From: Planctomycetota bacterium
GTDB taxonomy: Bacteria; Planctomycetota; UBA1135; GCA-002686595
Direction of reading: 5' to 3'
Length of the DNA: 32,000 nucleotides
Assembly (NCBI GenBank): GCA_030746555.1
Contig: JASLMK010000072.1
Coordinates: forward strand, 12,257 to 44,256
Position numbers and translations under genes: made by a program. The notes under the pieces were generated by a model. It was not told where the DNA came from. It saw nothing but the letters and a program-made list of their open reading frames with translations, and made no database searches. Below are positions 4,891 through 32,000 of this stretch, piece after piece; the first letter of the stretch is position 1, and the number at the start of each line of letters is the position of its first letter.

Positions 4891-4930
4891 CCTACCCCGC
4901 GGGAGACTCCGGGGAGCGCGCGGGTCGGCC

Positions 4931-5668
4931 TCAGTCCAGCCCGGCCCCCTTGGCGCGGTAGAAGGCGCCCACGTCGGCGCGGCGGGCGGCGGCGAAGAGG
5001 CGGGCGATGCCCCCGCTCCACGTGCGACCGGGCTTGCCGGCGGCCGCGTAGGCACGGGCCATGGCGCGGTCGTGGGCGGCGACCCCGGCGAGGACGTGCT
5101 CGTCGGTGGGATAGCGGCCCTCGGAGAGGACCGAGCCCAAGGGGAGGCGCGGTCGCCTCGGAGGCTCCTCCGCCGCCTCGCCGACGCACAGGCCGAAGAG
5201 CGCGAAGAGGTCGGAGGGCAGCTCCAGCAGGCGGTCGACTTCCTCCAGACGATTCCTCAGGCCCCCGATGAAGCAGACCCCCAACCCGGCGGCCTCGAAC
5301 CCCAGGGCGAGGTTCTGGGCGAACAGGGCGACGTCGATGACCGCCACCAGGAAGGCGTCGAAGTCGGGGCGGAACACGCTCCCGGCGCGCTCCACGACGA
5401 GGCGGTGGCGGCGCTGGTCCGCGCACAGGACGAAGAACGCGCCGGCCTCGCTGACCTGGCGCTGCCCGCCGCAGAGCTCCGCCAGACGCTCGCGCTCCGC
5501 CGAGTCCCGGACCCGGATCACGGAGTAGGCCTGGACGTGGCTCGAGGTCGCCGCGCACTGGGCCGCGGCGACGCAGCGCTCCACCAGACCCTCGTCGACC
5601 TCTCCGCCCGCGAAACGCCGAACGGTCCGGTGCGCCCCCAGCAGCTCGAACAGCTCCGTCTCTTCCAT
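4931..5668 (-). CDS. NADPH-dependent oxidoreductase / oxygen-insensitive nitroreductase (NfsA-like)
   Basis: This is the last 245 codons of the 1161-aa minus-strand track ORF, starting at ATG 5668. Sequence MEETELFELLGAHRTVRRFAGGEVDEGLVERCVAAAQCAATSSHVQAYSVIRV matches the nitroreductase-fold signature (R-R-F, SS..Q). The rest of that ORF is antisense to the next gene and is rejected. Confidence 0.85.
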   Translation of the reverse strand: MEETELFELLGAHRTVRRFAGGEVDEGLVERCVAAAQCAATSSHVQAYSVIRVRDSAERERLAELCGGQRQVSEAGAFFVLCADQRRHRLVVERAGSVFRPDFDAFLVAVIDVALFAQNLALGFEAAGLGVCFIGGLRNRLEEVDRLLELPSDLFALFGLCVGEAAEEPPRRPRLPLGSVLSEGRYPTDEHVLAGVAAHDRAMARAYAAAGKPGRTWSGGIARLFAAARRADVGAFYRAKGAGLD

Positions 5669-5758
5669 GGGGCCAGGATACGGTCGGACGGCGAGCGCCG
5701 CCGCTCTGCGCTCGGGTCCCGTGGACTCCCTCCGCCCCAGCGGATAGGTTCCGATCCG

Positions 5759-9401: not shown

Positions 9402-10526
9402 ATGAGCGAGGCCGTCCGCGACGCCGCGTTCTTCGACCACGTGGGCTACTCCACGGTCTGGGAGGACGAGCGCTGCATCGACGAGGGCCTGCGACCCGCT
9501 CCCGGCGAGCGCGTGCTCTCGATCACGTCCGGCGGAGACTTCAGCCTGCAGTTCCTGCTCGCCGACGTGGCCTCGGTCCTGTCGGTCGACTTCAACCCGC
9601 GCCAGGACTTCCTGCTGCAGCTGAAGGTCGCCGCCCTCGCCGAGCTGTCCCACGACGAGCTGTGGGGCTTCTGCGGGCTGGAGAGCTGCGGAGAGCGCGG
9701 TGGCCTCTACGCGCGCCTGCGGCCGCGGCTGGCCGCCGGGCCCCGCGAGTACTGGGACCGCCGCGAGCGCGCGATCCGGCGCGGGTTCCTCTTCGACGGC
9801 AAGCAGGACCGCTTCCTCCACCGGGCCGGTTCGCTGGTCACCGCCGCCCTCGGCCGGCGTGCGGTCGAGCGCTACTTCACGAGCACCACCCTCGCCGAGC
9901 AGCGCGCCGCCATCGGGCCGGGGCTGCGCGGCTGGCGCTGGCGCGCCCTGGCCCGGGTCCTGTTCAGCCGCGCGGTCTTCAACCGCGCCTTCGACCGCGC
10001 CCACTTCCGCTACGCGACGCGCGAGCACCACCCGGCGACGCTCCTGCGCGAGCAGGTCGAGGGCGTCTTCCTCGACCTCCCCGCGGTCGAGAACTACCCC
10101 TACCACTGGGCCTTCCGCCGGGGCTTCCGCGACCGCGAGCACTGCCCCGCCTGGCTGCGGGCGTCGGCCCACCCCACCCTGCGCGACCGCCTCGGGCGGC
10201 TCACCTCGACCGTGGGCGACCTGGCGGAGGTCCTCGAGGAGCTCCCCGAAGACTCCGTGGACTGCTTCCACTTCTCCAACGCCTTCGACTGGGTCAGCCT
10301 GGCGCAGTTCGTGGTCCTGATGAGCGAGGTCGTGCGCGTCGCCCGTCCGGGGGCGCGCCTGTGCTACTGGACGAACCTGTTCAACACGCACCGCGAGCTC
10401 GACCTCGCCATCGGGGCGTTGGGCGGGATCCGGGAGGAGCGCGACCTCGCGGACGGGATCCACCGCGCCTCCCGCACCCCCGGCTACTCCTCCTGCACGC
10501 TGGGGACGATCACGAAGGAGTGGTAG
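9402..10526 (+). CDS. DUF3419 / BtaA-like S-adenosylmethionine 3-amino-3-carboxypropyl transferase
   Basis: Starts at ATG 9402, 5 nt after the UbiA stop. YSTVWEDERCIDEGL, VLSITSGGDFSLQFLL, VLSVDFNPRQDFLLQLK and DCFHFSNAFDWV match my recollection of the BtaA/DUF3419 pattern (Y.q.WED, SaGcN.L, DlNpaQ..LleLK, lSn..dW). Confidence 0.8.
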   Translation: MSEAVRDAAFFDHVGYSTVWEDERCIDEGLRPAPGERVLSITSGGDFSLQFLLADVASVLSVDFNPRQDFLLQLKVAALAELSHDELWGFCGLESCGERGGLYARLRPRLAAGPREYWDRRERAIRRGFLFDGKQDRFLHRAGSLVTAALGRRAVERYFTSTTLAEQRAAIGPGLRGWRWRALARVLFSRAVFNRAFDRAHFRYATREHHPATLLREQVEGVFLDLPAVENYPYHWAFRRGFRDREHCPAWLRASAHPTLRDRLGRLTSTVGDLAEVLEELPEDSVDCFHFSNAFDWVSLAQFVVLMSEVVRVARPGARLCYWTNLFNTHRELDLAIGALGGIREERDLADGIHRASRTPGYSSCTLGTITKEW

Positions 10527-11446: not shown

Positions 11447-12538
11447 ATGCTTCTCGAAGACCGCGTAGGCGCGATCGGGGGGGCCGACCGCCGAGAGGAT
11501 GCTCGGCCCCTCGCCTACGAGCGCGCCGGTCGCGTGGGCGTAGCCGCCGCGAGCACAGAGCTCGAGGCCGTGGGCCATGACCTCGTAGATCAGGTTCGTC
11601 TTGCGGTGGGGCGGCATCACGCCGAACACGAAGAACACGACCCGGTCCCGCGGCGCCTCGGCCAGGGCGGCGAGGTCGCCCCCGTCGCCGTCGAGCTCGC
11701 CGAAGGCGCGCGCGAGATCGTGGTAGCCGAAGCTGAAGCCGGCGATCTCCCCGGTCGCGGGCACCTCCCAGCGGGTCAGGAACTCGGGTCGCGACAGCTC
11801 GAGCAGCGGCCCGAAGGCCTGACGGAACTCCGCCAGGTCGATCGGGGCGCAGTGGTAGTTCTCGGCGAAGCACTCCATGATCATCGGGTGCAGGAGCTCG
11901 AGCTGCTCGGCGAGGGAGGAGGCCGTCGCGTCGACCGGCAGGTACTCCCCCGCTCCCTCGGCGCGCCGGGAGAGGCCGGCGGAGACGGCGGCGCCCAGCC
12001 CGCCGAGGACCCGCCGGGGAAGATCCCAGCTGCGCCAGCTCGCGTGCGGCGCGAAGCCTGCGGACTCGACGAGGGCGCGGTAGTAGGCGGGGCAGCGTGG
12101 CTCGCCCAGAAACGGCTCCCGGTCGAAGCCGTCGGTCTGCAGGCGGTAGCCGCCGTAGACGCTGAGGTTCACCGGGCCGTGCACGGTCCGGCATCCCTCC
12201 CCCGCGAGCCACTCCTCAGCCGCCGCGAACAGGGCGGAGGCCACGGCGGGATCGTCGCCGGTCTCGAAGAAGCCGAAGTGTCCGGTGCCCGACTCCGCCA
12301 GGCCGTCGTCCGCCGAGGCGACGATGCGCCCGACGACCTCGCCCGCCCGGCGGCACAGGAAGGGGCGCGCCCGGCCGTGGCGGAAGAACAGGTTCTCGTC
12401 GGACAGCTGGGTGCGCACGCTCTCGCGCAGGGGCGGCACCCAACGGTGCTCTCCTCCGTAGATGCGCCAGGGGAGCTCGATGAATGCCTCCAGCTCGGCT
12501 CCCTCGCGGTCGATCGCGGTCACTTCCAGGGCATCCAT
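11438..12538 (-). CDS. GNAT-fold acyl-CoA N-acyltransferase-like protein (two-lobed, 366 aa)
   Basis: Starts at ATG 12538 and overlaps the upstream stop (TGATG). The N-terminus FIELPWRIYGGEHRWVPPLRESVRTQLSDENLFFRHGRARPFLCRRAGEVVGRIVA matches a widespread family usually annotated as GNAT N-acetyltransferase. The family assignment is from memory, and the acyl donor and acceptor are unknown. Confidence 0.7.
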   Translation of the reverse strand: MDALEVTAIDREGAELEAFIELPWRIYGGEHRWVPPLRESVRTQLSDENLFFRHGRARPFLCRRAGEVVGRIVASADDGLAESGTGHFGFFETGDDPAVASALFAAAEEWLAGEGCRTVHGPVNLSVYGGYRLQTDGFDREPFLGEPRCPAYYRALVESAGFAPHASWRSWDLPRRVLGGLGAAVSAGLSRRAEGAGEYLPVDATASSLAEQLELLHPMIMECFAENYHCAPIDLAEFRQAFGPLLELSRPEFLTRWEVPATGEIAGFSFGYHDLARAFGELDGDGGDLAALAEAPRDRVVFFVFGVMPPHRKTNLIYEVMAHGLELCARGGYAHATGALVGEGPSILSAVGPPDRAYAVFEKHLG

Positions 12539-15231
12539 CAGGGCGCCTCCTCTCTGGCTGTCCCGTCCTCGGGATGGACCCGGATCGTCCCCGCGTCGCC
12601 GTCCAGGGTCACGAGCGCGCCGTCGGGGAGCCTGGCGCACAGGTCCCGGACGGCCAGCACGGCGGGGATGCCGTACTCGCGAGAGATCACCGCAGCGTGG
12701 GAGAGCAGGCCGCCGGTCTCGGTCGCCACGCCCGCCAGCAGGCCGAAGCGCGGGGTCCAGCCCGGGTCGGTGTAGCGCGTGACGAGGACGTCCCCCTCCT
12801 CGAGGCGGTCGGCGTCGAAGATGTCGCGCACCACTCGGACACGGCCCGTCACCACGCCCGGGCTGCAGGCGACGCCCTCGAGCTTTGCTCCCGGGCCGGC
12901 CGGCGCGCCGGTGGCCGAGGCCCCGTAGCCCTCGCCGATCTCGTCGGGGTTGCGGTAGTGGCGGAAGGAGCGGTAGTAGAGACGGTTGCGCGCGACGAGG
13001 CGGGCGGCGTCCGCGGCGGTGAGCTCGCCCCTCGCCAGCCCCAACAGGTCGTCGAGCGCCAGGAAGAACACGTCGTCCACCTCGGCGAGGTCGCCGCCGC
13101 CCACCAACCGGCGGGCGACCTCCAGGGTGAAGCGGCGCACGAAGAAGTAGAAGCGCGTCGAGAGGTCGCGCAGCTCCTCCCGCCACCACAGGAACTCGCG
13201 CAGGCGGTCCAGCCTGGCCGCGAGGCCCCTGCGGCGATGGAAGGGCGCCAGGCGCAGCATGCGCTCGCGCTCGGCGAGGTAGGCCTCGTGGGCGCGGGCG
13301 TTCGCCCGCCGCGGGTCCGCCTCGTCCTCGAGCCCTAGCAGGTCCCGGCAGTGCTCGACCACGATACGCGGGGCCTCCCCGTAGCGCGGGACCGAGAGGT
13401 CGAGCTCGCGCGTGGCGTGGTGACGAGAGCGCCGCACCACCTCCGCCAGCTCACCCAGACAGTGCTCGTCGGAGCCGGCGAGCATGGCGCGCGTCAACTG
13501 GCCGTCGTCCTGGCTCTCCCACGCCGCCCGCGCGTCGACCGAGGCGCGGATCTTGCGGCTGACGTCCCACAGCTCGAAGTTGGGCAGGAGGTGCGAGACG
13601 TCGGTGAGCCCCGAGAACAGGGTCAAGAGGTCGACCTCGCCGCCGAGCCTGGTGAAGGCGCCCTTGGTCAGCGACTGCAGGTTGGAGTTGTTGTAGACGA
13701 GGGTGAAGTAGGTCCCCTCGCTCTGGCGGTAGTCCGGCCCCACCAGGGTCTCGTAGAGCGCGAGCAGCTCCTCGCGTCCCAGGGCCGCCGGATCGATCGC
13801 GTCCAGCACCGCCAGGCGCGCCTGTTGGCGCCGCCGGTGGGCCTCGAACCCGGCGCTCTGCTCGCGGAAGGCCCGCTGGAGCGCCAGGAACACGCGCGCC
13901 GCGTTCCACAGGGTCCGGGGAGTGAGCCGGGAGGTCCGACCGCGCCCCTCGTAGGCGACCTCGATCCCCAGCTCCTCGTCGAACTCGCGCTCGACGAAGC
14001 CGGGGATGGCGAGGAAGCACTGCTTGATCCGGGCCAGGTTCCAGTAGGGACGCCCGAAGAACATCTCGCCCCAGACGGTCTCGTCGTCGCGCCCCAACAG
14101 GCGCACGCCGCGCAGGTAGGCGGGCATGGTGCGCTCCAGGATCGAGTCGTAGAGCGACCACATGAACGGCGTGCAGACGGTCGACGAGACGCCGCCGTCC
14201 TTGAAGTCCGCGGTCGACCACTCGCCCTCGATCCCGCCGGTGCGGATAGCGGTGATCGGCCGGGCCTGCAGGAGGTACGGCTCCCCCTCCGCCCAGGCCC
14301 ACTCGATGTCGACCGGAAAGCCGTACTCGGCTTGGACCCCGACGGCGAGCTCGGCGAGCCTCGCGGCCTCCTCCGGCGACAGGACGGCGCGCTCCCGCCG
14401 CTCCTGCGCTAGGGGGACGGCGCGCACGAGGGCGGGAGGCTCCGCGCAGACCAGCGCGTGCTCCTGGTCCGCCGCCGTGCGCCCCACCTCGACTCGCCTG
14501 AACCAGTCGTAGCGCACCTGCTCGGGGGTCACGCTGCCGTCGACGAGCGCCTCGCCTAGGCCGAAGCAGGCCTCGATGACGACCTCGCGGTCGGCGCCGG
14601 TCACGGGATTGACCGTGAAGGCCACGCCGCTGCGCTCGGCGTCGACCAGCTCCTGCAGCACGACGGCGATCGCGAGGTCCGCCAGCGGGACGGCTCGATC
14701 GAGGCAGTAGGAGAGCACGCGCTCGTTGAAGGCCGACGCCCAGCACTCCCGGATCGCCGCGGCGACCTGGTCGAGGCCCTGCGCCCCTAGCACGGTCGTG
14801 TACATGCCGGCGAAGGAGACTCCGTGCAGGTCCTCCTTCGTACCGCTGCTGCGCACGGCGTAGCGCGCGCCCGCGGGCCGCTCTTGGAGGAAGGCCTCGA
14901 GGTCGCGGGCCAGGCCCTCGGGGAGCGGCGTCGAGACGATCGCCTCGCGGGCCTCGGCCGCGCGCGCGAGGCATCGCTCGCGATCAGGCGGTCCGCAGCG
15001 GCGCACGGCCTCGACCCGCTTCCCAAGCCCCCCGACATCGACGAACTGCTCGAAGCCTCCGGTCAGGACGACGGCGCCGGGCGGCACGCGAAGCCCCCAG
15101 GACTCCAGGCGCACGAGCCCCTGCGCCTTGCGGCCCGCCTGCTCCAGACGCGCGGGGTCCGCCGCGAGATCGGCGAAGGACGCGAGCTGCCCGCGGCCGG
15201 CCACGTGCCCGTCGTCAGTAGCTCGGCGCAT
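12538..15231 (-). CDS. PEP-utilizing three-domain kinase, rifampin-phosphotransferase-like architecture (copy 2, diverged paralog of 5759-8455)
   Basis: 897 aa. ATP-grasp blocks: YAVRSSGTKEDLHGVSFAGMYTTVLG, IAVVLQELVDAERSGVAFTVNP, FGLGEALVDGSVTPE and VDIEWAWAEGEPYLLQARPIT. C-terminal swivel domain: GDVLVTRYTDPGWTPRFGLLAGVATETGGLLSHAAVISREYGIPAVLAV. Confidence 0.85.
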   Translation of the reverse strand: MRRATDDGHVAGRGQLASFADLAADPARLEQAGRKAQGLVRLESWGLRVPPGAVVLTGGFEQFVDVGGLGKRVEAVRRCGPPDRERCLARAAEAREAIVSTPLPEGLARDLEAFLQERPAGARYAVRSSGTKEDLHGVSFAGMYTTVLGAQGLDQVAAAIRECWASAFNERVLSYCLDRAVPLADLAIAVVLQELVDAERSGVAFTVNPVTGADREVVIEACFGLGEALVDGSVTPEQVRYDWFRRVEVGRTAADQEHALVCAEPPALVRAVPLAQERRERAVLSPEEAARLAELAVGVQAEYGFPVDIEWAWAEGEPYLLQARPITAIRTGGIEGEWSTADFKDGGVSSTVCTPFMWSLYDSILERTMPAYLRGVRLLGRDDETVWGEMFFGRPYWNLARIKQCFLAIPGFVEREFDEELGIEVAYEGRGRTSRLTPRTLWNAARVFLALQRAFREQSAGFEAHRRRQQARLAVLDAIDPAALGREELLALYETLVGPDYRQSEGTYFTLVYNNSNLQSLTKGAFTRLGGEVDLLTLFSGLTDVSHLLPNFELWDVSRKIRASVDARAAWESQDDGQLTRAMLAGSDEHCLGELAEVVRRSRHHATRELDLSVPRYGEAPRIVVEHCRDLLGLEDEADPRRANARAHEAYLAERERMLRLAPFHRRRGLAARLDRLREFLWWREELRDLSTRFYFFVRRFTLEVARRLVGGGDLAEVDDVFFLALDDLLGLARGELTAADAARLVARNRLYYRSFRHYRNPDEIGEGYGASATGAPAGPGAKLEGVACSPGVVTGRVRVVRDIFDADRLEEGDVLVTRYTDPGWTPRFGLLAGVATETGGLLSHAAVISREYGIPAVLAVRDLCARLPDGALVTLDGDAGTIRVHPEDGTAREEAP

Positions 15232-18200
15232 CCTTGATCCGCCCCAGGGCGAAGCCGTGCTTGCGCGCCACTTCCATGATCGCCTCGACGCGCTCGATCG
15301 TGATCGGCCCGAAGCTGTAGTGCTCGTCGATCCCCTCCAGGCCCATCAGGAGCGACTCGGAGACGCAGGCGTGGGTCTCCCCGGTCGCCACGGTGACGCC
15401 GGGAATGCGGAAGTCCTCGTTGCAGGGGAGCTTCACGACGCCGCCGAGGATCACGGTCACGTCGGGCCGCTCGGTGCGCACGGAGGGGTCGGTGTCGGTA
15501 GGGACGGAGATGTCGCAGATCACGACCGGCCCGGGGCCGAGCATGGAGGGGAAGAGGACCGGCCCGGGATCGTTGGTCGTGCTGACGATGAGGGTGGCGT
15601 CGACGAGGTCGGTGAGGTCGCCGCTCACTCGCAGGGGCGAGCTCGCGCCCAGGGTGCGCTCCAGCTCGGCGAACAGCCAGGGGCCGAGGTCCGCGGGGGA
15701 CTCGCGGCCCTCCAGGAGGCGGAGGGCCGGCTCGGTGTCCGCCAGGGAGCCGGCGATGCCCGAGAGGGAGGCCCGCTGCCCCGTGTCGCAGCCGCGCAGG
15801 GTCTCGAAGGCCTCCTCGAGGATGCGCCCCGCCACGGCCCTCAGACGCCGGCGATGGGACGGGCGGCCGACCAGGATCATGCGCGGCACGTGCCGCGCCA
15901 GGAGGTCGCCGTAGACGCTGCCGATGTTGCCGAGGGCGCCGATGACGGCGGCGCACGCGGTGCCGAGGGCGATCCCTTCCTCCGCCGCGGTGCGCCGGAT
16001 CGACTCGAACCCCATGGCCACGGTCAGCGAGTTCCCCGAGGTCAGGGCCAAAGAGCCGGTGTTCTTCACGTCGGTGCAGTTGCCGGTGATGATCGACGTG
16101 AAGCCGCCGTAGCCCATGACCTGGCAGCCCTCGCGCTTGGCGAGGTCCACGGCGATCTCGATCTTCTCGTCGAGGAATCGATGGTTGCGCGCGCGCATGT
16201 GGGCGCCGATGGTCGCCGAGGACTCGAACAGGGCGATCAGCTGGAAGTCCGCCACGGCGCCGGCAGAGGAGCGGACGGTGATCACCGGCATCAGGAACGG
16301 ATCGATGATGTCCTTGAAACGGTCCATCAGCGCCTCGAGCTGCTCCTCGGTGAACCCCTCCAGGCCGGGGTCGAAGTCGAGCAGCTCGCGGGGGTGGATG
16401 AAGTGCCCGAGGAAGGCGACGCGGCGCCTCTCCGGCGGCGCCGACGGCGGGGGAGCCGGCCGGCGCCGATCGGCGATCGGCCCTTCGGTGCCAGGGGTCT
16501 CATCGCCCGCGACGAACCTCAGCAGCTCGTAGGTGTTCTGCTTCTCGATCGCCTCGCACAGGCGCCGCAGCCCCCCGATCAGCCGCTCGCAGTCCTGTGC
16601 GGAGACGCAGTAGGGCGGCTCGAGCCGCAGGGTGTCGCTGTTGGACAGAGTCGGGAAGACGCGCAGGCGGTGCTCGTGCAGCAGGTATCCGGCGACGACG
16701 TAGCCGAACAAGTGCTGCTGGCCCAGGGCGCGCAGGGTCGTGCACGCGGACTCCGCCTGGGAGCGGAGCTCGACGCCGATCATCAGGCCCGCTCCGCGCA
16801 CTTCGGCGATCACGCCTGGGAACTCGCGGCGCACGCCCTCGAGGCGTTCGAGAAGCTCCGCGCCGACGCGCTCGCAGCGCCCGTAGATCTCAGCGTCGCG
16901 CTCGAGCAGGTCGAGCGCCGCCACGGCGAGGGCCGCGGAGTGGCAGTCCTCGGCGAAGGTCGAGGTGTGGATGCGCCCGAATTCCTCGTCGTACTGGGCC
17001 GCGTCCAGGAGCAGCGCCGAGATCTTCGCCAGCCCGCCGCCCAGGCTCTTGGACAGGAGGTAGTAGTCGGCGACGACGCCGAGCTGCTCGGCGAACAGGA
17101 ACGTCCCGGTGCGCCCCATCCCGGTCTGGATCTCGTCGAAGATGAGCGGGAAGCCGGCGGCGTCGGCGACGCCCCGGCAGCTCTCCAGGAAGGCGGGAGG
17201 AACCGGGTGGATCCCGCCCTCGCCTTGGATCGGCTCGATGAAGAGCCCGGCTACGGTCACCAGCGGCATCGGTTCGAGGGCCAGCTCCTCGCCCGCGGGC
17301 CCGGCGCGGATCACCGGGCGGTAGAGGCACTGGGTCCGGCGGGCGACGATCCGCTCCAACGCCTCCTCGTCGAAGCAGGGCACGAACTCCGTCTCGACGC
17401 CGAAGCCGGCGAACGGTTTGCGGTACTCGTCGTGGTGGGTCAGCTGGACGGCGCCCGTGGTCTTGCCGTGGAAGGCGCGCTCCAGCGCCAGGAAGGCGGG
17501 CGCGGGCAGCTCGGCGAGGGTCCTCTGGTTGTGGGCATCGAGGCGCTCGAGGGCCTCGGCCACGGGTCCCTCGACCCCGGCGGGCTCCCCGGCGGTCCGG
17601 TGCACCAGGGTGCGCAGCTCCAGGACGGCGGTCGGCGGGTGTTCGGAGAGCTCCGCGGGCAGGGAGGGGCCACGCACGAGCTCGGCGAGCTCCTCGGCGA
17701 TCCCCAGGGACTCGAGGTCGGCCCGCCGGCGGATCCGTACGCCGTCCGCCCGCGCTCCGCGCACCCGCGCCCGCAGGCGGTTCCTCCAGACCAGGGTCGC
17801 GTGCTTGATGGCGCCCTCGACCGCCTCGGCGCCCGAGTTGGCGAGGGCCGTCAGGTAGCGCCGGCCGGTGCGCGCCGCCAGCATCTCCCCCAGGCGCTCC
17901 CCCACGTTGGCGGCCTCGGGCCGGGCGCTACCCTGGCTGTTGAAGGGCAGGCCAGCCGCCAGGGTCTCCCGGGCGCGACGGACGAGCTCGGGGTGGTTGT
18001 GCCCGAACAGGGCCGCCCCGAAGCCACCCACGAAGTCGCTGACCGCGACCTCGGCTCCGTCCTCGTCCCGATGGAACAGGCGCGCGCCCTCCCCGCGGTG
18101 GTAGGTCACGTCCATCCGCATCGCGCGCAGGCGCTTGCCGATCGAGGGCCGGCAGTGCTCGGTGTACTTGGCGCTGTCAGTCTGGGGCACGGGTTCCTCC

Positions 18201-18268
18201 GAGAGGATCCCGTCCTCAGCCCGAGACCGCGGTCTCCCCGAGCCGGCGGTGAGCCGGGACGGGGTCAT
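15215..18268 (-). CDS. Fusion protein: class-III (omega) PLP aminotransferase domain (N-terminal) + acyl-ACP-reductase (AAR/COG5322)-like NAD(P)-binding reductase domain (C-terminal)
   Basis: Aminotransferase blocks: GGFGAALFGHNHPEL, ANSGAEAVEGAIKHA, AFHGKTTGA, IEPIQGEGGI, LIFDEIQTGMGRTG and LLSKSLGGG (PLP Lys). After a Pro/Arg linker (about residue 600), the C-terminal ~400 aa (nt 15215-16423) align by eye to cyanobacterial Aar. Matches are FLGHFIHP (Aar LIGHLTS), GYGGFTSIITGN (ALGGFTSII), LTSGNSLTVAMG (FTTGNTHTAWV), AAVIGALGNIGSVYG (VAVVGATGDIGSAV), ACVSESLLMGLEG (ACFAEAMLLEFEG) and ITIERVEAIMEVARKHGF (ITIEKMEAIGEASVRHGF). An alternative start is GTG 18190, preceded by GGAGG 5 nt upstream. 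Confidence 0.85.
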   Translation of the reverse strand: MTPSRLTAGSGRPRSRAEDGILSEEPVPQTDSAKYTEHCRPSIGKRLRAMRMDVTYHRGEGARLFHRDEDGAEVAVSDFVGGFGAALFGHNHPELVRRARETLAAGLPFNSQGSARPEAANVGERLGEMLAARTGRRYLTALANSGAEAVEGAIKHATLVWRNRLRARVRGARADGVRIRRRADLESLGIAEELAELVRGPSLPAELSEHPPTAVLELRTLVHRTAGEPAGVEGPVAEALERLDAHNQRTLAELPAPAFLALERAFHGKTTGAVQLTHHDEYRKPFAGFGVETEFVPCFDEEALERIVARRTQCLYRPVIRAGPAGEELALEPMPLVTVAGLFIEPIQGEGGIHPVPPAFLESCRGVADAAGFPLIFDEIQTGMGRTGTFLFAEQLGVVADYYLLSKSLGGGLAKISALLLDAAQYDEEFGRIHTSTFAEDCHSAALAVAALDLLERDAEIYGRCERVGAELLERLEGVRREFPGVIAEVRGAGLMIGVELRSQAESACTTLRALGQQHLFGYVVAGYLLHEHRLRVFPTLSNSDTLRLEPPYCVSAQDCERLIGGLRRLCEAIEKQNTYELLRFVAGDETPGTEGPIADRRRPAPPPSAPPERRRVAFLGHFIHPRELLDFDPGLEGFTEEQLEALMDRFKDIIDPFLMPVITVRSSAGAVADFQLIALFESSATIGAHMRARNHRFLDEKIEIAVDLAKREGCQVMGYGGFTSIITGNCTDVKNTGSLALTSGNSLTVAMGFESIRRTAAEEGIALGTACAAVIGALGNIGSVYGDLLARHVPRMILVGRPSHRRRLRAVAGRILEEAFETLRGCDTGQRASLSGIAGSLADTEPALRLLEGRESPADLGPWLFAELERTLGASSPLRVSGDLTDLVDATLIVSTTNDPGPVLFPSMLGPGPVVICDISVPTDTDPSVRTERPDVTVILGGVVKLPCNEDFRIPGVTVATGETHACVSESLLMGLEGIDEHYSFGPITIERVEAIMEVARKHGFALGRIKDAPSY

Positions 18269-18353: not shown

Positions 18354-19274
18354 TCAGTCCTTCTCGAGGACCTCGCCGTTCTCGAAGAGCAGGATCGAGT
18401 CCGCGACGAGCATGACCGTCTGGAACCGCGAGAAGGCGCCGGCGACGGTCGGGTATCCGTACTCGAAGGTGGAGCCGTCCATGAACAGGAAGGCGCTGCC
18501 GTCCTCGGCCACGTGGCGCACGCGTCGGGTCCGGTAGACGAGTCCCTCGTCGTCTCCCGGCCCGCGCACGAGCTCCGCCTCGCGGTGCCCCTGGCCCTCC
18601 AGCCAGATCCGCCGGCCGCCTGAGTGCAGGAACGCCCTTGCCCGCGGCGCGAGGAAGTCCAGAGGCCCGCGCACGTCGACCCGCACGCCGTTGTCGAGGG
18701 TCAAGCGCTGCTTGTCGATGCCCGAGGAGCGCGCCCAGAAGCCGCGGCTCACCGGGCGGGCTCCGCCCCGCGCCGTCCCGTCGGCTGAGGCGCTCCGCCG
18801 ACAGAGGTAGCGCACCGGCTCGGCGCCGCGCTCGGTCAGGGTGGCGACCCCCAGGGCGGTCTCTCCCGCGCCAAGGACCGTGAACTCCAGGCGCAGCCGC
18901 TCGACGTCCCGTCGCTCGGGCAGCTCGAACAGTGCGCTCTCGACATGGCCGCGGCGCCAGGCCTCGATCAGCTGCACGCCGTCCCCGAGCCCCTCGATGA
19001 CCGGCGAGCCGTCGCTCGCCGCGAGGTCGACCGACCACTCCTTCGGCAGCGTCTCCCCGGGCCACAGGGCCCGCGTCGCCGCCCGGTCGAGGTGCCAGGA
19101 GCCGAAGATCTCCCCCGGCGAGGCGCGCGGAAAGCCATCGGTGGGTGTGGTCGCCGCTTCGGCCGGCCCTCCCGCGGCATCCACCCTGCCCTCGCCTTGC
19201 CGCAGTCCGCCGACGATCGCACCCAGCACTCCCGCCGCCAGCGCCCACCTGCTCCAACCGATCGCGTCGCTCAT
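18354..19274 (-). CDS. Hypothetical membrane-anchored/exported protein (306 aa)
   Basis: This is the C-terminal 306 codons of the track ORF 18354..19943, starting at ATG 19274. It begins MSDAIGWSRWALAAGVLGAIVGGL (TM/signal anchor), followed by a mixed-composition soluble domain ending FLFMDGSTFEYGYPTVAGAFSRFQTVMLVADSILLFENGEVLEKD. I recognise no family. Confidence 0.6.
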   Translation of the reverse strand: MSDAIGWSRWALAAGVLGAIVGGLRQGEGRVDAAGGPAEAATTPTDGFPRASPGEIFGSWHLDRAATRALWPGETLPKEWSVDLAASDGSPVIEGLGDGVQLIEAWRRGHVESALFELPERRDVERLRLEFTVLGAGETALGVATLTERGAEPVRYLCRRSASADGTARGGARPVSRGFWARSSGIDKQRLTLDNGVRVDVRGPLDFLAPRARAFLHSGGRRIWLEGQGHREAELVRGPGDDEGLVYRTRRVRHVAEDGSAFLFMDGSTFEYGYPTVAGAFSRFQTVMLVADSILLFENGEVLEKD

Positions 19275-26349: not shown

Positions 26350-26784
26350 ATGAGCCACGAGACCCTCGAACCCTCCGACGCCCACGAGCGCATCCAGCGC
26401 GAACAGGGCTGGCACTGCCTCGACGTGCGCACGCCCGAGGAGTTCGCCGCCGGGCACCTTCCGGGGGCCTGGAACGTCCCCTTCGGCTTCAAGAGCCCCG
26501 GCGGCCTGGTCGCCAATCCCGAGTTCCTCGAGGCGATCGAGCGCCTGTTCGGCAAGCAGGCCCGCATGGTGGTGTACTGAGCGGCCGGAGGGCGCTCGCA
26601 GCGTGCCTGCGAGCTCCTGGTCGCCGCCGGCTTCACCGGGCTGGTAGACATGCCCGGCGGGTTCAGCGGGAAACGCGACGAGGCGGGGACCGTGGTGATC
26701 GCGGGCTGGCAGGCGCGAGAGCTGCCGTGCACCGAGGCGCCCGAGGCCGGGCGCTCCTGGGATGAGCTGCGCGGGGGGGGCTGA
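26350..26784 (+). CDS. Single-domain rhodanese-like sulfurtransferase with an in-frame TGA (26578-26580) at the catalytic-Cys position; candidate selenoprotein (alternatively a pseudogene)
   Basis: The track ORF 26350..26580 ends ...FGKQARMVVY-TGA. The same frame continues AAGGRSQRACELLVAAGFTGLVDMPGGFSG...IAGWQARELPC to TGA 26782-26784. Joined, it aligns by eye with GlpE-type and plant Str-type rhodaneses (DVRTPEEFAAGHLPGA; VVY[U]AAGGRS against xxxCxxGxRS; GGFxxW). The downstream half has no start codon of its own near its 5' end. Confidence 0.6.
26590..26618 (+). promoter_or_regulatory. Candidate bacterial SECIS-like hairpin immediately 3' of the in-frame UGA
   Basis: GCTCGCAG (26594-26601) pairs perfectly with CTGCGAGC (26607-26614) around a 5-nt loop CGUGC. 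The stem extends by 3 more pairs (26590-92 with 26616-18, including one G.U) across a single C/U mismatch. The base of the stem starts 10 nt after the UGA and the apical loop 22 nt after it. Confidence 0.45.
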
Positions 26785-26857: not shown

Positions 26858-28636
26858 ATGATCGCACGCTCCATCCTCCTTTCGTGGGCGGCCGTCGTCG
26901 CGCCGCCCGCCGCACTCGCCGACGCGCCGGCCATCGGCGAGCGCATCGGCGAGCTCTCCTTCACCGACACGCGCTACCTGCCGCGCTCCCTCGGCGAGTT
27001 CGGAGAGCGAGAGGCCTTCGTGCTGGTCTTCACGACCACCGACTGCCCCCTGGTGCAGCGCTACCTGCCGCGCCTGGCCGCCATGGAGCGTGAGTACCGC
27101 CCCCGGAGCGTGCAGTTCCTCGCCGTCGGCGTCGGACCTCACGACTCCCTGATCGAGATCGCCGCCCAGGCGGTCGAGAAGGGCGGCGGGATCCCCTTCG
27201 TGAAGGACTTCGACGGCTCGACCGTCGAAGCCCTGGGCGTCGAGCGCACCCCCGAGGTGGTCGTCCTCGACGGCCAGAGGCGCCTGCGCTACCGCGGGCG
27301 AGTGGACAGCCAGTACCGCCTCGGCGGCGTGCGCCCCGACGAGGGGCGCGCGGACCTGCGCGAGGCCCTGGAGGCCGTGCTCGCGGGGAGGGAGGTGAGC
27401 GTCGGCGAGACTCCGGTGGACGGCTGCCGCATCCAGCCGACGCGGGAACGCACGGGGCAGGCGCCGCCCTACGCCGCGGTGGACGCCGTCCTGCGCGCGC
27501 ACTGCCAGGAGTGCCACCGGCCCGGGACCGAGGCGCCCTTCTCCCTGATCACCTTCGACCAGGTCGCGGCCCACGCCGACACGATCGGGGAGGTCGTGCG
27601 CGAGGGGCGCATGCCGCCCTGGTACGCCGACGAGCGTCACGGCACCTTCGGGAACTCGCGCCTGCTCGACGACGACGAGCGCGAGACCCTGCTGGCCTGG
27701 GTCGCCGCCGGTGCCCCCGACCCCGGTCCTCAGCCCCTGCCGCCGCCGGTCGAGTGGCCCGAGACCGACTGGCGCATCGGAGAACCCGACCTCGTCATCA
27801 CCCAGCCGAAGGCGGAGGAGCTGCCGGCCGATGGCTACGTCCCCTACCGCTACGAGGTCCTGCCCCACGTGTTCACCCACGACACCTGGGTCTCCGCGGT
27901 CGAGGTGCGGCCCGACAATCCCGGGTCCCTGCACCACGCGAACCTCGTGCACTTTCGCCTCGGGATGGACTTCGACGACGGCGGGTTCATCACCGGTCAG
28001 GTGCCCGGAGGCTCGCCCATGGACCTGCCGAGCGGAACGGCGGTCCTCATCCCCAAGGACTCGGTGCTCGCCCTGCAGATGCACTTCGTCACCACCGGCG
28101 TCGAGGAGCGCTGCCAGATCGAGGTCGGCCTGCGCTACCCGCGAGCGAAGGTGCGCAAGGAGCTCAAGCACCACATGATCGCGAACCACGGGTTCCGCAT
28201 CCCGCCCCACGCGCCCGCCCACCCGGTCGCCGCCGCGGCGACCTTCGCACGCGACGCCACGGGGGTCGGGATGTTCTCCCACATGCACCTGCGCGGGCGG
28301 GACATGACCTTCGAGGCTACCTACCCCTCCGGTGAGCGCGAGGTCCTGCTGTCCATCCCCAACTACAGCTTCGACTGGCAGCTCGGCTACGAGCTCGCTC
28401 CCGACGCCCGGCGCTTCCCCGCAGGGACGCGAGTCGACGTCCTGGCCCACTTCGACAACTCGGCCTTCAACCCCTACAACCCCGATCCCTCGAAGACCGT
28501 GCGTTGGGGCCCGCAGACCCACCACGAGATGATGATCGGCTTCCTCTTCTTCACGGAGGACGAGCAGGACCTCGGGTTGGTCGTCGACCCCGCCACCGGG
28601 CGCATCGTCGAGGCTTCGGGCGAAGCCGGGGGCTGA
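26858..28636 (+). CDS. Exported multidomain redox protein: redoxin/AhpC-TSA-like thioredoxin fold + CxxCH cytochrome c (Planctomycete-cytochrome-c-like) + copper type II ascorbate-dependent-monooxygenase-like C-terminal domain
   Basis: Starts at ATG 26858 (MIARSILLSWAAVVAPPAALADA signal). Redoxin block: EAFVLVFTTTDCPLVQRYLPRL...TPEVVVLDG. Heme motif: LRAHCQECHRPG...MPPW. The C-terminal domain has LHHANLVH, LQMHF, SHMHLRG and THHEMMIG, arranged like the PHM/DBH copper ligands. Confidence 0.85.
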   Translation: MIARSILLSWAAVVAPPAALADAPAIGERIGELSFTDTRYLPRSLGEFGEREAFVLVFTTTDCPLVQRYLPRLAAMEREYRPRSVQFLAVGVGPHDSLIEIAAQAVEKGGGIPFVKDFDGSTVEALGVERTPEVVVLDGQRRLRYRGRVDSQYRLGGVRPDEGRADLREALEAVLAGREVSVGETPVDGCRIQPTRERTGQAPPYAAVDAVLRAHCQECHRPGTEAPFSLITFDQVAAHADTIGEVVREGRMPPWYADERHGTFGNSRLLDDDERETLLAWVAAGAPDPGPQPLPPPVEWPETDWRIGEPDLVITQPKAEELPADGYVPYRYEVLPHVFTHDTWVSAVEVRPDNPGSLHHANLVHFRLGMDFDDGGFITGQVPGGSPMDLPSGTAVLIPKDSVLALQMHFVTTGVEERCQIEVGLRYPRAKVRKELKHHMIANHGFRIPPHAPAHPVAAAATFARDATGVGMFSHMHLRGRDMTFEATYPSGEREVLLSIPNYSFDWQLGYELAPDARRFPAGTRVDVLAHFDNSAFNPYNPDPSKTVRWGPQTHHEMMIGFLFFTEDEQDLGLVVDPATGRIVEASGEAGG

Positions 28637-28650
28637 GCCGCCGAGGTTGT

Positions 28651-28683
28651 TTGTCCACCGCCACGTGGGCCGATATCATCGGC
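28651..28683 (+). promoter_or_regulatory. Sigma70-like promoter candidate with overlapping palindromic operator-like sites upstream of mmsA
   Basis: TTGTCC (28651-56), a 17-nt spacer, then TATCAT (28674-79), in an unusually AT-rich patch. The perfect palindrome CCACGTGG (28661-68) sits in the spacer. The inverted repeat GCCGAT-ATC-ATCGGC (28669-83) overlaps the -10. Confidence 0.3.
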
Positions 28684-28757
28684 GCCCCGCTCCCGCCGCA
28701 GAGGCTCCGCCCGCACCGGGCCGGCCGCGGTCGCAGGGCGCGGGAGACCTCCCCCAG

Positions 28758-30209
28758 ATGACGGCTGAACGACTGCAGAATCACATCGACGGCGCGTGGA
28801 CCGATTCCGATGCCGCCGAGGTCTACGAAGTGACCAATCCCGCCAGCGGCGAGGTCATCGGCCTGACGCCCCTGTGCGGAGCCGAGGAGGTCGACGCCGC
28901 CGTGCGTTCCGCCGCGCGCGCCTACCCCGCCTGGCGCCGCACGCCGATCCAGGAGCGCATCCAACCCCTCTTCCGCCTGAAGGCGCTGCTCGAGGAGCAC
29001 GCGGAAGAGCTGGCCGCCGTCGTCACGCGCGAGAACGGCAAGACGCTGCCGGAGGCGCGCGGGAGCGTGCGGCGTGGGATCCAGATGATCGAGGCCGCCT
29101 GCGGCGCGCCCTCCTTGATGATGGGCCAGGCCCTGGAGGACATCGCCGCCGGCATCGACTGCGAGAGCGTGCGCCAGCCGCTCGGCGTCTTCGCCTGCAT
29201 CGCACCCTTCAACTTCCCCGCCATGGTGCCGATGTGGTTCTTCCCCTTCGCCGTGGCCTGCGGGAACACGTTCGTCTGCAAGCCCTCCGAGCAGGTCCCC
29301 TTCAGCCAGAAGCTCGTCTGGCGCCTGATCGACGAGGCCGGTTTCCCGCCGGGCGTGTTGAACCTCGTGCACGGCGGGCGCGAGGCCGTAGACACCCTGA
29401 TCGAACACCCCCTGGTGCGCGGCGTCTCGTTCGTCGGCTCCAGCCCCGTGGCCGAGCACGTCTACAAGACCGCGGCGGCCCACGGCAAGCGCGTCCAGGC
29501 CCTCGGCGGCGCCAAGAACTTCGTCATCGTCATGCCCGACGCGGACATGGACGCGACCGTGGCCTCGATCACCGACTCCGCCTTCGGCTGCGCCGGCGAG
29601 CGCTGCCTGGCTGCCAGCATCGTCGTGTGTGTCGGCGACAGCCACGCCGAGGTGCGCGCGGGCCTGGTGCGCGCCATGGGCGAGATCGAGGTCGGCGACG
29701 GGACGCGTGAGGGAGTGACCCTGGGCCCGCTGATCTCCGCGGCACACAAGCGCAAGGTCGAGGAGCGCATCGCCGCCGGCGTCGAGGAGGGCGCCGAGCT
29801 GGTGCTCGACGGCCGCGGCGTGAAGGTCGACGGCTCCGAGGGCGGCTTCTTCCTCGGTCCGACCCTGTTCGACGGCGTCTCCCCGACCATGAGCATCGGC
29901 ACCGAGGAGGTCTTCGGGCCGGTGCTGTGCCTGATGCGGGCCGAGACCATCGAGGACGCCCTCGAGCTCGCCCGCAACCAGCCGCTGGCCAACGCCAGCT
30001 CGATCTTCACCACCAGCGGGAGGCACGCGCGCACCTTCCGCTACGAGATCGAGGCCAGCATGGCCGGCGTCAACATCGGCGTCGCCGCCCCCATGTCCTT
30101 CTTCGGCTTCGGCGGCGCGAAGGGCTCGTTCTTCGGAGACCTCAAGGCCCACGGGCGCGAGGCCTTCGACTTCTTCACCGACCGCAAGGTCGTCATCTCC
30201 CGCTGGTAG
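28758..30209 (+). CDS. mmsA: CoA-acylating methylmalonate-semialdehyde / malonate-semialdehyde dehydrogenase
   Basis: Starts at ATG 28758, with GGGAGA 10 nt upstream. ALDH-family blocks: CIAPFNFPAMVPMWFFPFAVACGNTFVCKPSE, FVGSSPVAEHVY, GGAKNF, AFGCAGERCLA (catalytic Cys, MMSDH-type GERC) and EEVFGPVL. The C-terminal FFGDLKAHGREAFDFFTDRKVV is typical of MmsA. Confidence 0.9.
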   Translation: MTAERLQNHIDGAWTDSDAAEVYEVTNPASGEVIGLTPLCGAEEVDAAVRSAARAYPAWRRTPIQERIQPLFRLKALLEEHAEELAAVVTRENGKTLPEARGSVRRGIQMIEAACGAPSLMMGQALEDIAAGIDCESVRQPLGVFACIAPFNFPAMVPMWFFPFAVACGNTFVCKPSEQVPFSQKLVWRLIDEAGFPPGVLNLVHGGREAVDTLIEHPLVRGVSFVGSSPVAEHVYKTAAAHGKRVQALGGAKNFVIVMPDADMDATVASITDSAFGCAGERCLAASIVVCVGDSHAEVRAGLVRAMGEIEVGDGTREGVTLGPLISAAHKRKVEERIAAGVEEGAELVLDGRGVKVDGSEGGFFLGPTLFDGVSPTMSIGTEEVFGPVLCLMRAETIEDALELARNQPLANASSIFTTSGRHARTFRYEIEASMAGVNIGVAAPMSFFGFGGAKGSFFGDLKAHGREAFDFFTDRKVVISRW

Positions 30210-30227
30210 AGAGAGGATCCCCAAAGC

Positions 30228-31100
30228 GTGGCAAGAATCGTCAAGGGCGGACTGATCCAGTGCGCCAACCCCAAGAACGACGAGACGCTCCCGGTGGCGG
30301 AGATCCAGGCGGCTGCGCTCTCCAAGCACCTCCCGCTGATCGAGGAGGCCGGGGCGGCCGGCGTGCAGATCCTCTGCCTGCAAGAGATCTTCAACGGCCC
30401 CTACTTCTGTCCCGGCCAGGACGCCCGCTGGTACGACGCCGCGGAGCCGATCCCAGGGCCGACCACCGAGGCCCTCGCACCGCTGGCGGCCAAGCACCAG
30501 ATGGTGCTCGTCGTGCCGCTCTACGAGCGCGAGCAGGCCGGCGTCTACTACAACAGCGCCGCGGTCATCGACGCCGACGGCACCTACCTCGGCAAGTACC
30601 GCAAGAACCACATCCCCCACACCTCGGGGTTCTGGGAGAAGTTCTTCTTCAAGCCGGGGAACCTCGGCTATCCGGTCTTCGAGACGGCCTACGCCAAGGT
30701 CGGGGTGTACATCTGCTATGACCGTCACTTCCCCGAGGGGGCGCGGCTGTTGGGCCTGAACGGCGCCGAGATCGTCTTCAATCCCTCCGCCACGGTCGCG
30801 GGCCTCTCCCAGTACCTGTGGAAGCTCGAGCAGCCCGCCCACGCCGTCGCCAACGGCTACTTCATGGGCTGCATCAACCGGGTCGGGACCGAGGCGCCCT
30901 GGAACCTCGGGAAGTTCTACGGCACCAGCTACTTCGTCGATCCGCGCGGGAGCTTCTTGGCCGAAGGCTCCGAGGACGACGACGAGCTGGTCTGCGCCGA
31001 GATGGACCTGGAGCTGATCGAGGAAGTGCGGCGCGTGTGGCAGTTCTACCGCGACCGACGCCCGGAGACCTACGAGGACATGGTCGGCCTGCTGCCCTGA
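30228..31100 (+). CDS. Beta-ureidopropionase (N-carbamoyl-beta-alanine amidohydrolase), nitrilase superfamily
   Basis: GTG start at 30228. Nitrilase E-K-C triad contexts: ILCLQEIFNGPYFC, GKYRKNHIPH and VYICYDRHFPE. High by-eye similarity to animal/bacterial beta-ureidopropionases (WEKFFFKPGNLGYPVF, QPAHAVANGYF). Confidence 0.9.
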   Translation: MARIVKGGLIQCANPKNDETLPVAEIQAAALSKHLPLIEEAGAAGVQILCLQEIFNGPYFCPGQDARWYDAAEPIPGPTTEALAPLAAKHQMVLVVPLYEREQAGVYYNSAAVIDADGTYLGKYRKNHIPHTSGFWEKFFFKPGNLGYPVFETAYAKVGVYICYDRHFPEGARLLGLNGAEIVFNPSATVAGLSQYLWKLEQPAHAVANGYFMGCINRVGTEAPWNLGKFYGTSYFVDPRGSFLAEGSEDDDELVCAEMDLELIEEVRRVWQFYRDRRPETYEDMVGLLP

Positions 31101-31108
31101 GGAGAGCG

Positions 31109-32000
31109 ATGGCGAAGACACTCATCCAAGGCGGAACGGTCGTGACGGCGACCGAGGTCTTCCGCGGCGACGTGCTGGTCGACGGCGAGCGGGTCGAGGC
31201 GGTCGGCTGCGACCTCTCAGGCGAGGTGGACCGCACGATCGACGCCACCGACCGACTGGTGATCCCCGGCGGCATCGACGTGCACACGCACCTCGACATG
31301 CCGTTCGGCGGCGCCTTCTCGGTGGACGACTTCGAGACCGGGACCATCGCGGCGGCCCACGGCGGCACGACGACGGTGGTCGACTTCGCCATCCAGGAGC
31401 GCGGCAAGACCCTGCGCCACGCCTGGGAGAGTTGGATGGCCAAGGCCGAGGGCAAGGCGGCCATCGACTACGGCTTCCACATGATCCTGTCCGAGCACAC
31501 GCGCGAGCTCGAGCGCGAGATGGGCGACATGGTCGAGGAGGGCGTGACCTCCTTCAAGCTGTTCATGGCTTACCCCGGCGTCTTCTACATGGACGACGGC
31601 GGCATCTTCCGCTGCATGCAGCGCTCCGGCGAGATCGGGGCGACCATCTGCATGCACGCGGAGAACGGCATCGTGATCGACGTCCTGGTGGAGCAGGCCC
31701 TCGCTCGCGGGGAGACCGAGCCGCGCTACCACGCCCTCACGCGCCCGCCGCGCGCCGAGGCGGAGGCCACCCACCGTGCGATCGCCCTGGCCGAGATGGC
31801 GGACGTCCCCGTCTACATCGTGCACCTCTCCGCCGCCGAGGCCCTGGCGGAGGTGACCGCCGCCCGCGCCCGCGGTCTGGCGGCCTTCGCCGAGACCTGT
31901 CCCCAGTACCTGTTCCTCTCCTACGACAACTACGAGGAGCCGGACTTCGAGGGCGCCAAGTACGTCATGAGCCCGCCCCTGCGGGACAAGGCCAAGCAGG
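31109..32000 (+). CDS. hydA: Dihydropyrimidinase / D-hydantoinase (N-terminal ~297 codons; continues beyond the window)
   Basis: ATG 31109 with GGAGAG 2 nt upstream. MAKTLIQGGTVVTA, VIPGGIDVHTHLDMPFGG (HxH metal site), SFKLFMAYPG (carboxylated Lys), CMHAENG and VYIVHLS. The frame has no stop before base 32000, which probably explains why this ORF is missing from the track. Confidence 0.9.
   Translation, partial: MAKTLIQGGTVVTATEVFRGDVLVDGERVEAVGCDLSGEVDRTIDATDRLVIPGGIDVHTHLDMPFGGAFSVDDFETGTIAAAHGGTTTVVDFAIQERGKTLRHAWESWMAKAEGKAAIDYGFHMILSEHTRELEREMGDMVEEGVTSFKLFMAYPGVFYMDDGGIFRCMQRSGEIGATICMHAENGIVIDVLVEQALARGETEPRYHALTRPPRAEAEATHRAIALAEMADVPVYIVHLSAAEALAEVTAARARGLAAFAETCPQYLFLSYDNYEEPDFEGAKYVMSPPLRDKAKQ

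Follow-up and report, generated by a model that had tools for sequence, protein, structure and literature searches.

We describe a gene of the rhodanese family at positions 26350-26784 on the forward strand of a 32,000-nucleotide (nt) stretch of Planctomycetota bacterium DNA (assembly GCA_030746555.1, contig JASLMK010000072.1; hereafter the window), in which an in-frame TGA codon takes the place of the catalytic cysteine codon. Comparison with related sequences indicates that this is very probably a real selenoprotein gene, encoding a rhodanese with selenocysteine (Sec) at residue 77 in the position of the catalytic Cys, and such doubt as remains concerns the Sec machinery of the genome and the identity of the inserted residue. 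The gene is a newly found member, mis-annotated in public records, of a family known from computational prediction and catalogued since 2005; it is not a new kind of system.

The complete gene would encode 144 residues (about 15.5 kDa) in a single domain, made up of 76 amino acids (aa), Sec77 and a further 67 aa, an assignment that draws on translation, the Pfam domain match, a syntenic ortholog and the pattern of substitution described below. A sequence-only reading of the window had noted a 76-aa open reading frame (ORF) that ends in ...ARMVVY at TGA 26578-26580 and whose frame then stays open for another 67 codons. Translation bears this out: the gene starts with ATG 26350, 76 codons (MSHETLEP...GKQARMVVY) lead into the TGA, and the 67 open codons that follow (AAGGRSQRACELLVAAGFTGLVDMPGGFSGKRDEAGTVVIAGWQARELPCTEAPEAGRSWDELRGGG; beginning AAGGRSQRACELL and ending ELRGGG) run to a stop TGA at 26782-26784. 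TGA 26578-26580 is the sole interruption of the 144-codon gene, which has no frameshifts and no second stop, and the coding bias in G+C content at third codon positions (GC3) is kept in both halves (0.95 upstream and 0.90 downstream), as the same reading had claimed. In the public records the gene is split into MDP6539124.1, a 76-aa rhodanese-like domain-containing protein, and MDP6539125.1, a 44-aa hypothetical protein (QF903_04055).

When U is written as C, the Pfam Rhodanese model PF00581 matches residues 10-107 across the TGA with E = 1e-16 and 61.7 bits (gathering cut-off 22.2). A sequence search of solved structures aligns the UGA, residue 77, with the active-site Cys of 1TQ1 (VGCQSGGRS), 8W14 (LLCRSGNRS) and 3TP9 (VYCRTGGRS), and the Cys-form genes discussed below align in the same way. 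The loop codons at 26578-26598 therefore read U-A-A-G-G-R-S and correspond to the six-residue CxxGxR[ST] cradle of rhodaneses, with the catalytic residue first and, as predicted, Sec in the place of Cys. The suggestion that the two halves form one complete rhodanese domain with the UGA at the catalytic Cys is thus confirmed. The protein is probably cytoplasmic, no signal peptide being evident by eye.

Across the six frames of the 32-kb window, TGA 26578-26580 is the only TGA with 40 open codons of coding-like GC3 on both sides. A relaxed scan of the window brought up two other in-frame TGAs, on the minus strand at 18356 and 27999, which were set aside as resembling an ordinary stop with an open tail and an antisense artefact. 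The window has a GC content of 72.7%, and TGA terminates 11 of its 12 long coding-like ORFs, so that UGA is an ordinary stop codon here and the genetic code is not reassigned.

Related genes were collected in two scans. One, run with a degenerate pattern specific for TGA (U-x-x-G-G-R-S-Q-R-[AG]-x-E), covered a single genome of each species; the other, a metagenome scan with TGH at the catalytic codon, gave at least 120 loci and was then restricted to the exact peptide GGRSQRACE, with duplicates removed. All counts on 19 Sec forms and 95 Cys forms in this text rest on these scans, among the matches listed. The genome scan yielded 30 matches. Twelve of these are genuine rhodanese genes, in which the N-terminal half is complete, the catalytic codon is TGA and the frame continues for 64-69 codons (the continuation of L027 is cut by the contig end); the remaining 18 lack any rhodanese context and were discarded as chance matches. 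Six more Sec forms and 95 distinct Cys forms came from the metagenome scan. At least 19 distinct genes thus have TGA at this codon, with amino-acid identities of 36-83% (median 48%), and 17 of these are distinct from the genes of the window and of a sister species introduced below. Every Sec form from a named genome (12 of 12) belongs to a Planctomycetota metagenome-assembled genome (MAG), one of which is labelled Phycisphaerales. The UGA codon is replaced by TGC or TGT in the 95 distinct Cys-form genes and in P0001-P0005, so that alignment with Cys homologs, which the sequence-only reading had proposed as a check, agrees with the solved structures in placing the catalytic Cys exactly at the UGA. 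Sec and Cys forms are interleaved, as illustrated by the Sec form of L033, which is 70% identical to the Cys form P0005 and nearer to it than to any other Sec form.

The candidate selenocysteine insertion sequence (SECIS) is a hairpin in the coding sequence just 3' of the UGA. Its core, defined by folding and by comparative data, comprises a 5' arm at 26594-26601 (GCUCGCAG), an apical loop at 26602-26606 (CGUGC) and a 3' arm at 26607-26614 (CUGCGAGC), all on the forward strand. An 8-bp perfect stem, extendable to about 11 bp, had been proposed to begin 10 nt after the UGA. The 8-bp stem is real, but it starts 13 nt after the UGA; an extension to about 12 bp, from 8 nt after the UGA, is indeed present in the minimum free energy (MFE) fold of 26586-26622 (AGGG / UCCU around a 1-nt bulge, 26589-26618), but it is found in this sequence only, lies outside the consensus structure of the 19 sequences and is not conserved. 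Folded alone, the 21-nt hairpin has an energy of -12.9 kcal/mol (z = -2.9), a value reached by 2 of 200 shuffled sequences. All 19 Sec forms have, in the same register, an unbroken stem of 6-8 bp (8 bp in the window) and a CG[U/G]GC loop that begins 21 nt after the UGA.

These features can be compared with the published consensus for bacterial SECIS (bSECIS) elements (PMC13188914, Fig. 2 legend). In this consensus the upper stem has 4-16 bp and carries an apical loop of 3-9 nt, a G stands within the first two loop positions and usually has G or U after it, UGA and apical loop are 16-37 nt apart, and the MFE is -7.5 kcal/mol or lower. The stem lengths given above and the 5-nt loop lie within these ranges, as does the spacing, which is 21 nt in the window (26581-26601) and in all 19 Sec forms, and the energy of the 21-nt hairpin is below the limit. 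The loop reads C-G-U-G-C in 15 of the 19 and C-G-G-G-C in the remaining 4, and never C-G-C or C-G-A. The claim that the hairpin has the geometry of a bacterial SECIS therefore stands on each point of the consensus. As in the E. coli fdhF-type SECIS and the bSECISearch model, the hairpin lies within coding sequence just downstream of the UGA, carries a small apical loop in which G is followed by U or G, and is spaced within 16-37 nt, whereas its primary sequence is unrelated. A bulged U in the upper stem is a feature of the fdhF SECIS, and a conserved bulged U is not evident in the upper stem here.

The codons of R-S-Q-R-A-C-E form the stem, where protein and RNA constraints are thus superimposed; the hairpin is accordingly tested by its wobble bases, with the 95 Cys forms that encode the same peptide as the control. 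Ser is encoded by TCG in 19 of 19 Sec forms as against 80 Cys forms (another codon in 15), and Gln by CAG in 19 of 19 as against 77 (CAA in 18). The loop Arg codon is CGT in 15 Sec forms and CGG in 4, never CGC, whereas 64 Cys forms have CGC at this position. For Ala, every Sec form uses GCC (19 of 19), as against only 30 of the Cys forms; Fisher p values for the comparison of Sec and Cys forms are 7e-10 for Arg and 9e-9 for Ala. The codon for the Cys ten residues after U is TGC in 18 of 19 Sec forms and is split between TGC (88) and TGT (7) in the Cys forms. In the same 19 genes the two Gly codons that precede the stem codons use all four synonyms, and among the other conserved columns Arg prefers CGC and another Ala column prefers GCG. 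That the loop Arg codon is CGU or CGG, and never CGC, is explained by the bSECIS rule of G followed by U or G. The loop-closing pair is formed in 25 of the 95 Cys forms, and a stem of at least 6 bp in 20 of the 95 compared with 19 of 19 Sec forms. These comparisons support the view that constraint on synonymous sites holds the hairpin in the TGA forms only, and that the hairpin qualifies as a predicted SECIS by published criteria.

If the standard bacterial pathway applies, the coding-sequence hairpin at 26594-26614 would act as the SECIS, its apical loop presenting G (26603) and then U (26604). SelB-GTP-Sec-tRNA(Sec) would bind this loop and deliver Sec to the UGA in competition with RF2, and the ribosome would then translate a further 67 codons before it reached the true stop at 26782-26784. 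By analogy with the rhodanese family, Sec77, first in the U-A-A-G-G-R-S loop, would accept sulfane sulfur (or selenium) as an Se-S(H) adduct, which would be handed to a thiol acceptor in a rhodanese double displacement with a more nucleophilic catalytic atom. A sulfurtransferase function is therefore what we would predict for the protein from its family.

Several observations weigh against the selenoprotein assignment or limit its basis. Longer folds (55-81 nt, in sequence of 73% GC) are no better than shuffles (z = -0.5 to -0.9), so that the fold alone proves little and it is the comparative data that make the hairpin evidence. No covariation support is obtained from a stem that is near-invariant, with one double change, a result no better than shuffles; given this invariance the covariation test is without power, and the case rests on synonymous-site conservation and on the Cys-form control. 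Rfam returns nothing relevant, either in a scan of the whole window at gathering thresholds or in a permissive scan of 26450-26750. The search patterns fixed the peptide GGRSQR[AG]xE and left only the wobble bases free, so that Sec forms with other loop peptides are unsampled, and most of the control Cys forms belong to different organisms, whose codon preferences are not the same. In addition, the Cys form at L169:3001-3438 (+) (P0001, 54% identical to the window protein), which has TGC at the catalytic codon, retains the full set of Sec-type hairpin codons TCG CAG CGT GCC TGC GAG CTC, and hence the hairpin by itself is no proof of recoding. Among the three closest Cys forms the loop signature is lost in L167 and L170 and the whole hairpin is kept in L169, where it could be a fossil SECIS left after a recent switch from Sec to Cys. 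Finally, ARAGORN detects no tRNA-Sec, and no tRNA of any kind, in the window and 29 related loci, and Pfam searches reveal no SelA, SelB or SelD domains in 20 ORFs of the window or in 10 that flank other Sec forms; these searches for sel genes and tRNA-Sec covered the window and the fetched loci only.

Indirect evidence for Sec decoding is nonetheless favourable, judging from candidates on related contigs and from the lineage. A full set of Sec machinery is reported for several Planctomycetes (PMC4807772). At L162:2238-2696 (+) a Bcp/PrxQ-type peroxiredoxin gene has a TGA (2367-2369) at the codon for the peroxidatic Cys (FYPKADTPG-U-IKEGSGF), with an AhpC-TSA match across the TGA (E = 2e-33) and, downstream, a hairpin with a CGGGACC loop that begins 21 nt past the UGA; this candidate lies about 5.5 kb from the Sec-rhodanese of the same contig. 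About 2.2 kb from the Sec-rhodanese of L033, in the same Planctomycetota MAG, a gene at 6760-7977 (-) with a TGA at 7705-7707 encodes a thioredoxin-like protein with the motif W-U-G-W-C (UxxC), Thioredoxin_7/2 domains and a long C-terminal helical region, and a stable hairpin lies downstream of this TGA. Peroxiredoxins with TxxU and thioredoxin-like proteins with UxxC are long-known selenoprotein families (tables in PMC9312934 and PMC13188914).

The same observations bear on the possibility that hairpin-aided recoding of the UGA inserts a residue other than Sec, either Cys carried by a tRNA-Sec-like tRNA or the product of near-cognate read-through, so that the gene would yield an ordinary Cys-rhodanese. 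That Sec machinery is not seen in the window or the fetched loci, and that a Cys form as close as L169 keeps the same hairpin, would both be compatible with such a mechanism. Rare bacteria, moreover, reportedly read a SECIS-associated UGA as Cys. The hairpin loop, however, has the G[U/G] signature of a SelB-type SECIS, members of classic selenoprotein families encoded on related contigs show UGA in place of the redox Cys codon, and this analysis gave no sequence evidence for a Cys-carrying tRNA-Sec-like tRNA. We therefore regard insertion of another residue at this codon as very unlikely, and Sec as very probably the residue inserted.

Copies of the gene from the same and a sister species show how the sequence beyond the TGA has evolved. 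The 76-aa product of the window gene is encoded on 12 contigs from NCBI, JGI and Logan assemblies, and six fetched copies of the same species (L011-L016) are base-for-base identical over the whole gene, including the TGA. Assemblies that belong to this species include GCA_030748675.1, GCA_030744815.1 and GCA_035092285.1, and the sister species is also represented by GCA_030743855.1. A protein search returned P0008, which is 80% identical to the window product and has the same end point, from the sister species Planctomycetota bacterium ARS15 (GCA_002686265.1); the sister-species gene is found on 17 contigs, and the 10 that were fetched are identical to each other and syntenic with the window. 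This ortholog is annotated as a hypothetical protein of 92 aa whose start lies 17 codons farther upstream. Its catalytic codon is likewise TGA, and the 67-codon continuation after it is conserved. Between the window and the sister species the ratio of non-synonymous to synonymous substitution (dN/dS, Nei-Gojobori) stands at 0.26 before the TGA and 0.25 after it and exceeds 2 in the two off-frames of the downstream half, and 28 of the 44 downstream differences fall at third codon positions. Since the downstream ratio equals the upstream one, the off-frames exceed 2 and third positions are in excess, the downstream half has been translated in this frame since the two species split. Termination of the orthologs at this codon, which the sequence-only reading had named as grounds for abandoning its proposal, is thus not what is found, and the orthologs have an intact continuation under purifying selection.

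These data bear directly on whether the gene is a pseudogene, that is, a rhodanese inactivated by a nonsense mutation at its catalytic codon, as its public annotation as a 76-aa fragment and a 44-aa hypothetical ORF might suggest. A TGA stands at the same codon in 19 genes that are 36-83% identical, with an intact continuation in each complete one, dN/dS is as low downstream as upstream, and there are no frameshifts or second stops, so that inactivation appears highly improbable. Equally hard to sustain is the proposal that the locus gives two products, a truncated 76-aa rhodanese and a C-terminal peptide started at ATG 26650, both without catalytic activity, even though this is precisely what gene callers predict (L011 genes 10001-10231 and 10301-10435). 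In-frame conservation extends over the 23 codons from the TGA to ATG 26650, six of which differ synonymously and two non-synonymously from those of the sister species (counted by eye), and these codons encode the invariant active-site loop; moreover, half a domain without its catalytic residue and without its last strands would be unlikely to fold. That a TGC or TGT was misread or misassembled as TGA, a check also put forward by the sequence-only reading, has nothing in its favour beyond prior possibility and is exceedingly improbable, because the codon is reproduced in many independent assemblies: on 12 contigs of this species, six of them fetched and identical (NCBI, JGI and Logan), on 17 contigs of the sister species, and in 17 further distinct genes.

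A selenoprotein rhodanese of this kind is not without precedent. The Sargasso Sea selenoproteome of 2005 already included three predicted Sec-containing rhodanese-related sulfurtransferases, assigned to COG2897 (PMC1088965), and in the Olavius symbionts Sec-rhodaneses were in 2007 the third most abundant selenoprotein family, with eight genes (PMC1976440). They are listed as a predicted family in current reviews (PMC9312934, PMC13188914), of which the 2026 review distinguishes five rhodanese forms, forms 2 and 4 having UxxG, with MBM9537886.1 and MCY3690685.1 as representatives (PMC13188914). The statement in the sequence-only reading that such proteins are known from computational prediction only agrees with all four sources (PMC1088965, PMC1976440, PMC9312934, PMC13188914). 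Given PF00581 and U-A-A-G, the window gene fits the catalogued UxxG kind of Sec-rhodanese by domain and motif. Common to it and to the predicted Sec-rhodaneses are PF00581 with Sec for the catalytic Cys, the UxxG motif, a SECIS just downstream, and an origin in aquatic metagenomes or MAGs with prediction as the sole source of knowledge. The lineage differs, being Planctomycetota here, whereas the earlier examples came from unassigned marine reads and deltaproteobacterial symbionts. The Sargasso Sea entry also belongs to COG2897, whereas the window protein, with a single domain in 144 aa, is by size closer to the COG0607 type.

Among proteins with Cys at the active site, the single-domain sulfurtransferases represented by Arabidopsis 1TQ1, 8W14, and E. 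coli GlpE and PspE share the fold and the six-residue loop, the match to 1TQ1 covering residues 19-107 with E = 2e-20 and that to 8W14 extending over the C-terminal G-W...L-P extension as well; they differ in having Cys where the window gene has UGA and, by our prediction, Sec. No NCBIfam model reaches its cut-off on the protein, the sub-threshold matches being to MnmH, MoeB, GlpE, PspE and TsoB, and filing the protein under any of these five was ruled out on account of those scores. Scores of 30.9 bits for GlpE and 27.5 bits for PspE (cut-off 102) thus indicate that it is not an ortholog of either. MnmH/SelU, the tRNA 2-selenouridine synthase, resembles it in linking a rhodanese domain to selenium chemistry, but the MnmH matches are weak and partial, confined to about 25 residues in the N-terminal DVRTPEEF region at 40 bits (cut-off 241). 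As MnmH has about 350 aa, a Cys active site and a P-loop domain, the window protein is not a member of that family.

We have also considered a more specific role, in which the Sec-rhodanese would be a dedicated selenium/sulfur-trafficking protein of Planctomycetota, with a selenopersulfide or perselenide on Sec77 resolved by the invariant Cys ten residues downstream (Cys87, in R-A-C-E) and feeding selenophosphate synthesis. If so, a selenoprotein would help to supply its own cofactor. The conserved U...C pair, the near-invariant SECIS in 19 genes and the nearby redox selenoprotein candidates are compatible with such a role and do not require it, and we consider it speculative and rather improbable.

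Identification of the gene has some practical consequences. The same mis-call is made in the one other species that was checked (ARS15-like), and the fixed TGA-to-hairpin signature would allow such genes to be called automatically. No Sec-containing rhodanese has been characterised biochemically, and the window gene is a practical choice for experiments on the role of selenium in persulfide-transfer chemistry, its merits being small size, a single domain, close Cys counterparts and a compact, well-defined SECIS. It also adds a selenoprotein candidate that is seen in a dozen Planctomycetota MAGs.

The adjoining downstream gene, at 26858-28636 (+), encodes a protein of 592 aa that by eye seems to have a signal peptide and that contains an AhpC-TSA/Redoxin domain and, in a haem-binding region, the motif C-Q-E-C-H; no NCBIfam model matches it. 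It was rejected as a conserved operon partner of the rhodanese gene, since synteny is confined to the window, L019 and L028, which represent the three closest species. Beyond it, a run of genes at 28647-32000 (+), continuing into L011:12409-20073, resembles a reductive pyrimidine-catabolism cluster and contains, in this order, an aldehyde dehydrogenase, a CN-hydrolase, a dihydropyrimidinase-like amidohydrolase, a class-III aminotransferase, a DHO_dh-type dehydrogenase and a cytosine/purine-family transporter. An aldehyde dehydrogenase gene also directly follows the Sec-rhodanese in two distant Sec-form loci (L158:727-2016 and L162:8059-9456). These two copies represent a different paralog, 28-29% identical to the enzyme of the window, which itself lies one gene farther from the rhodanese gene; an aldehyde dehydrogenase partner was therefore rejected, and the link may be a coincidence.

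Elsewhere in the window, two large paralogs of 1254 and 897 aa with PPDK_N and PEP-utilizers mobile domains, together with a 1017-aa class-III aminotransferase, are encoded at 4691-8455 (+), 12538-15231 (-) and 15215-18268 (-). The aminotransferase is unusually long and adjoins the PPDK_N paralogs, between which lie genes for a DUF3419 protein, a UbiA-like prenyltransferase and a phosphatidylserine decarboxylase domain protein.

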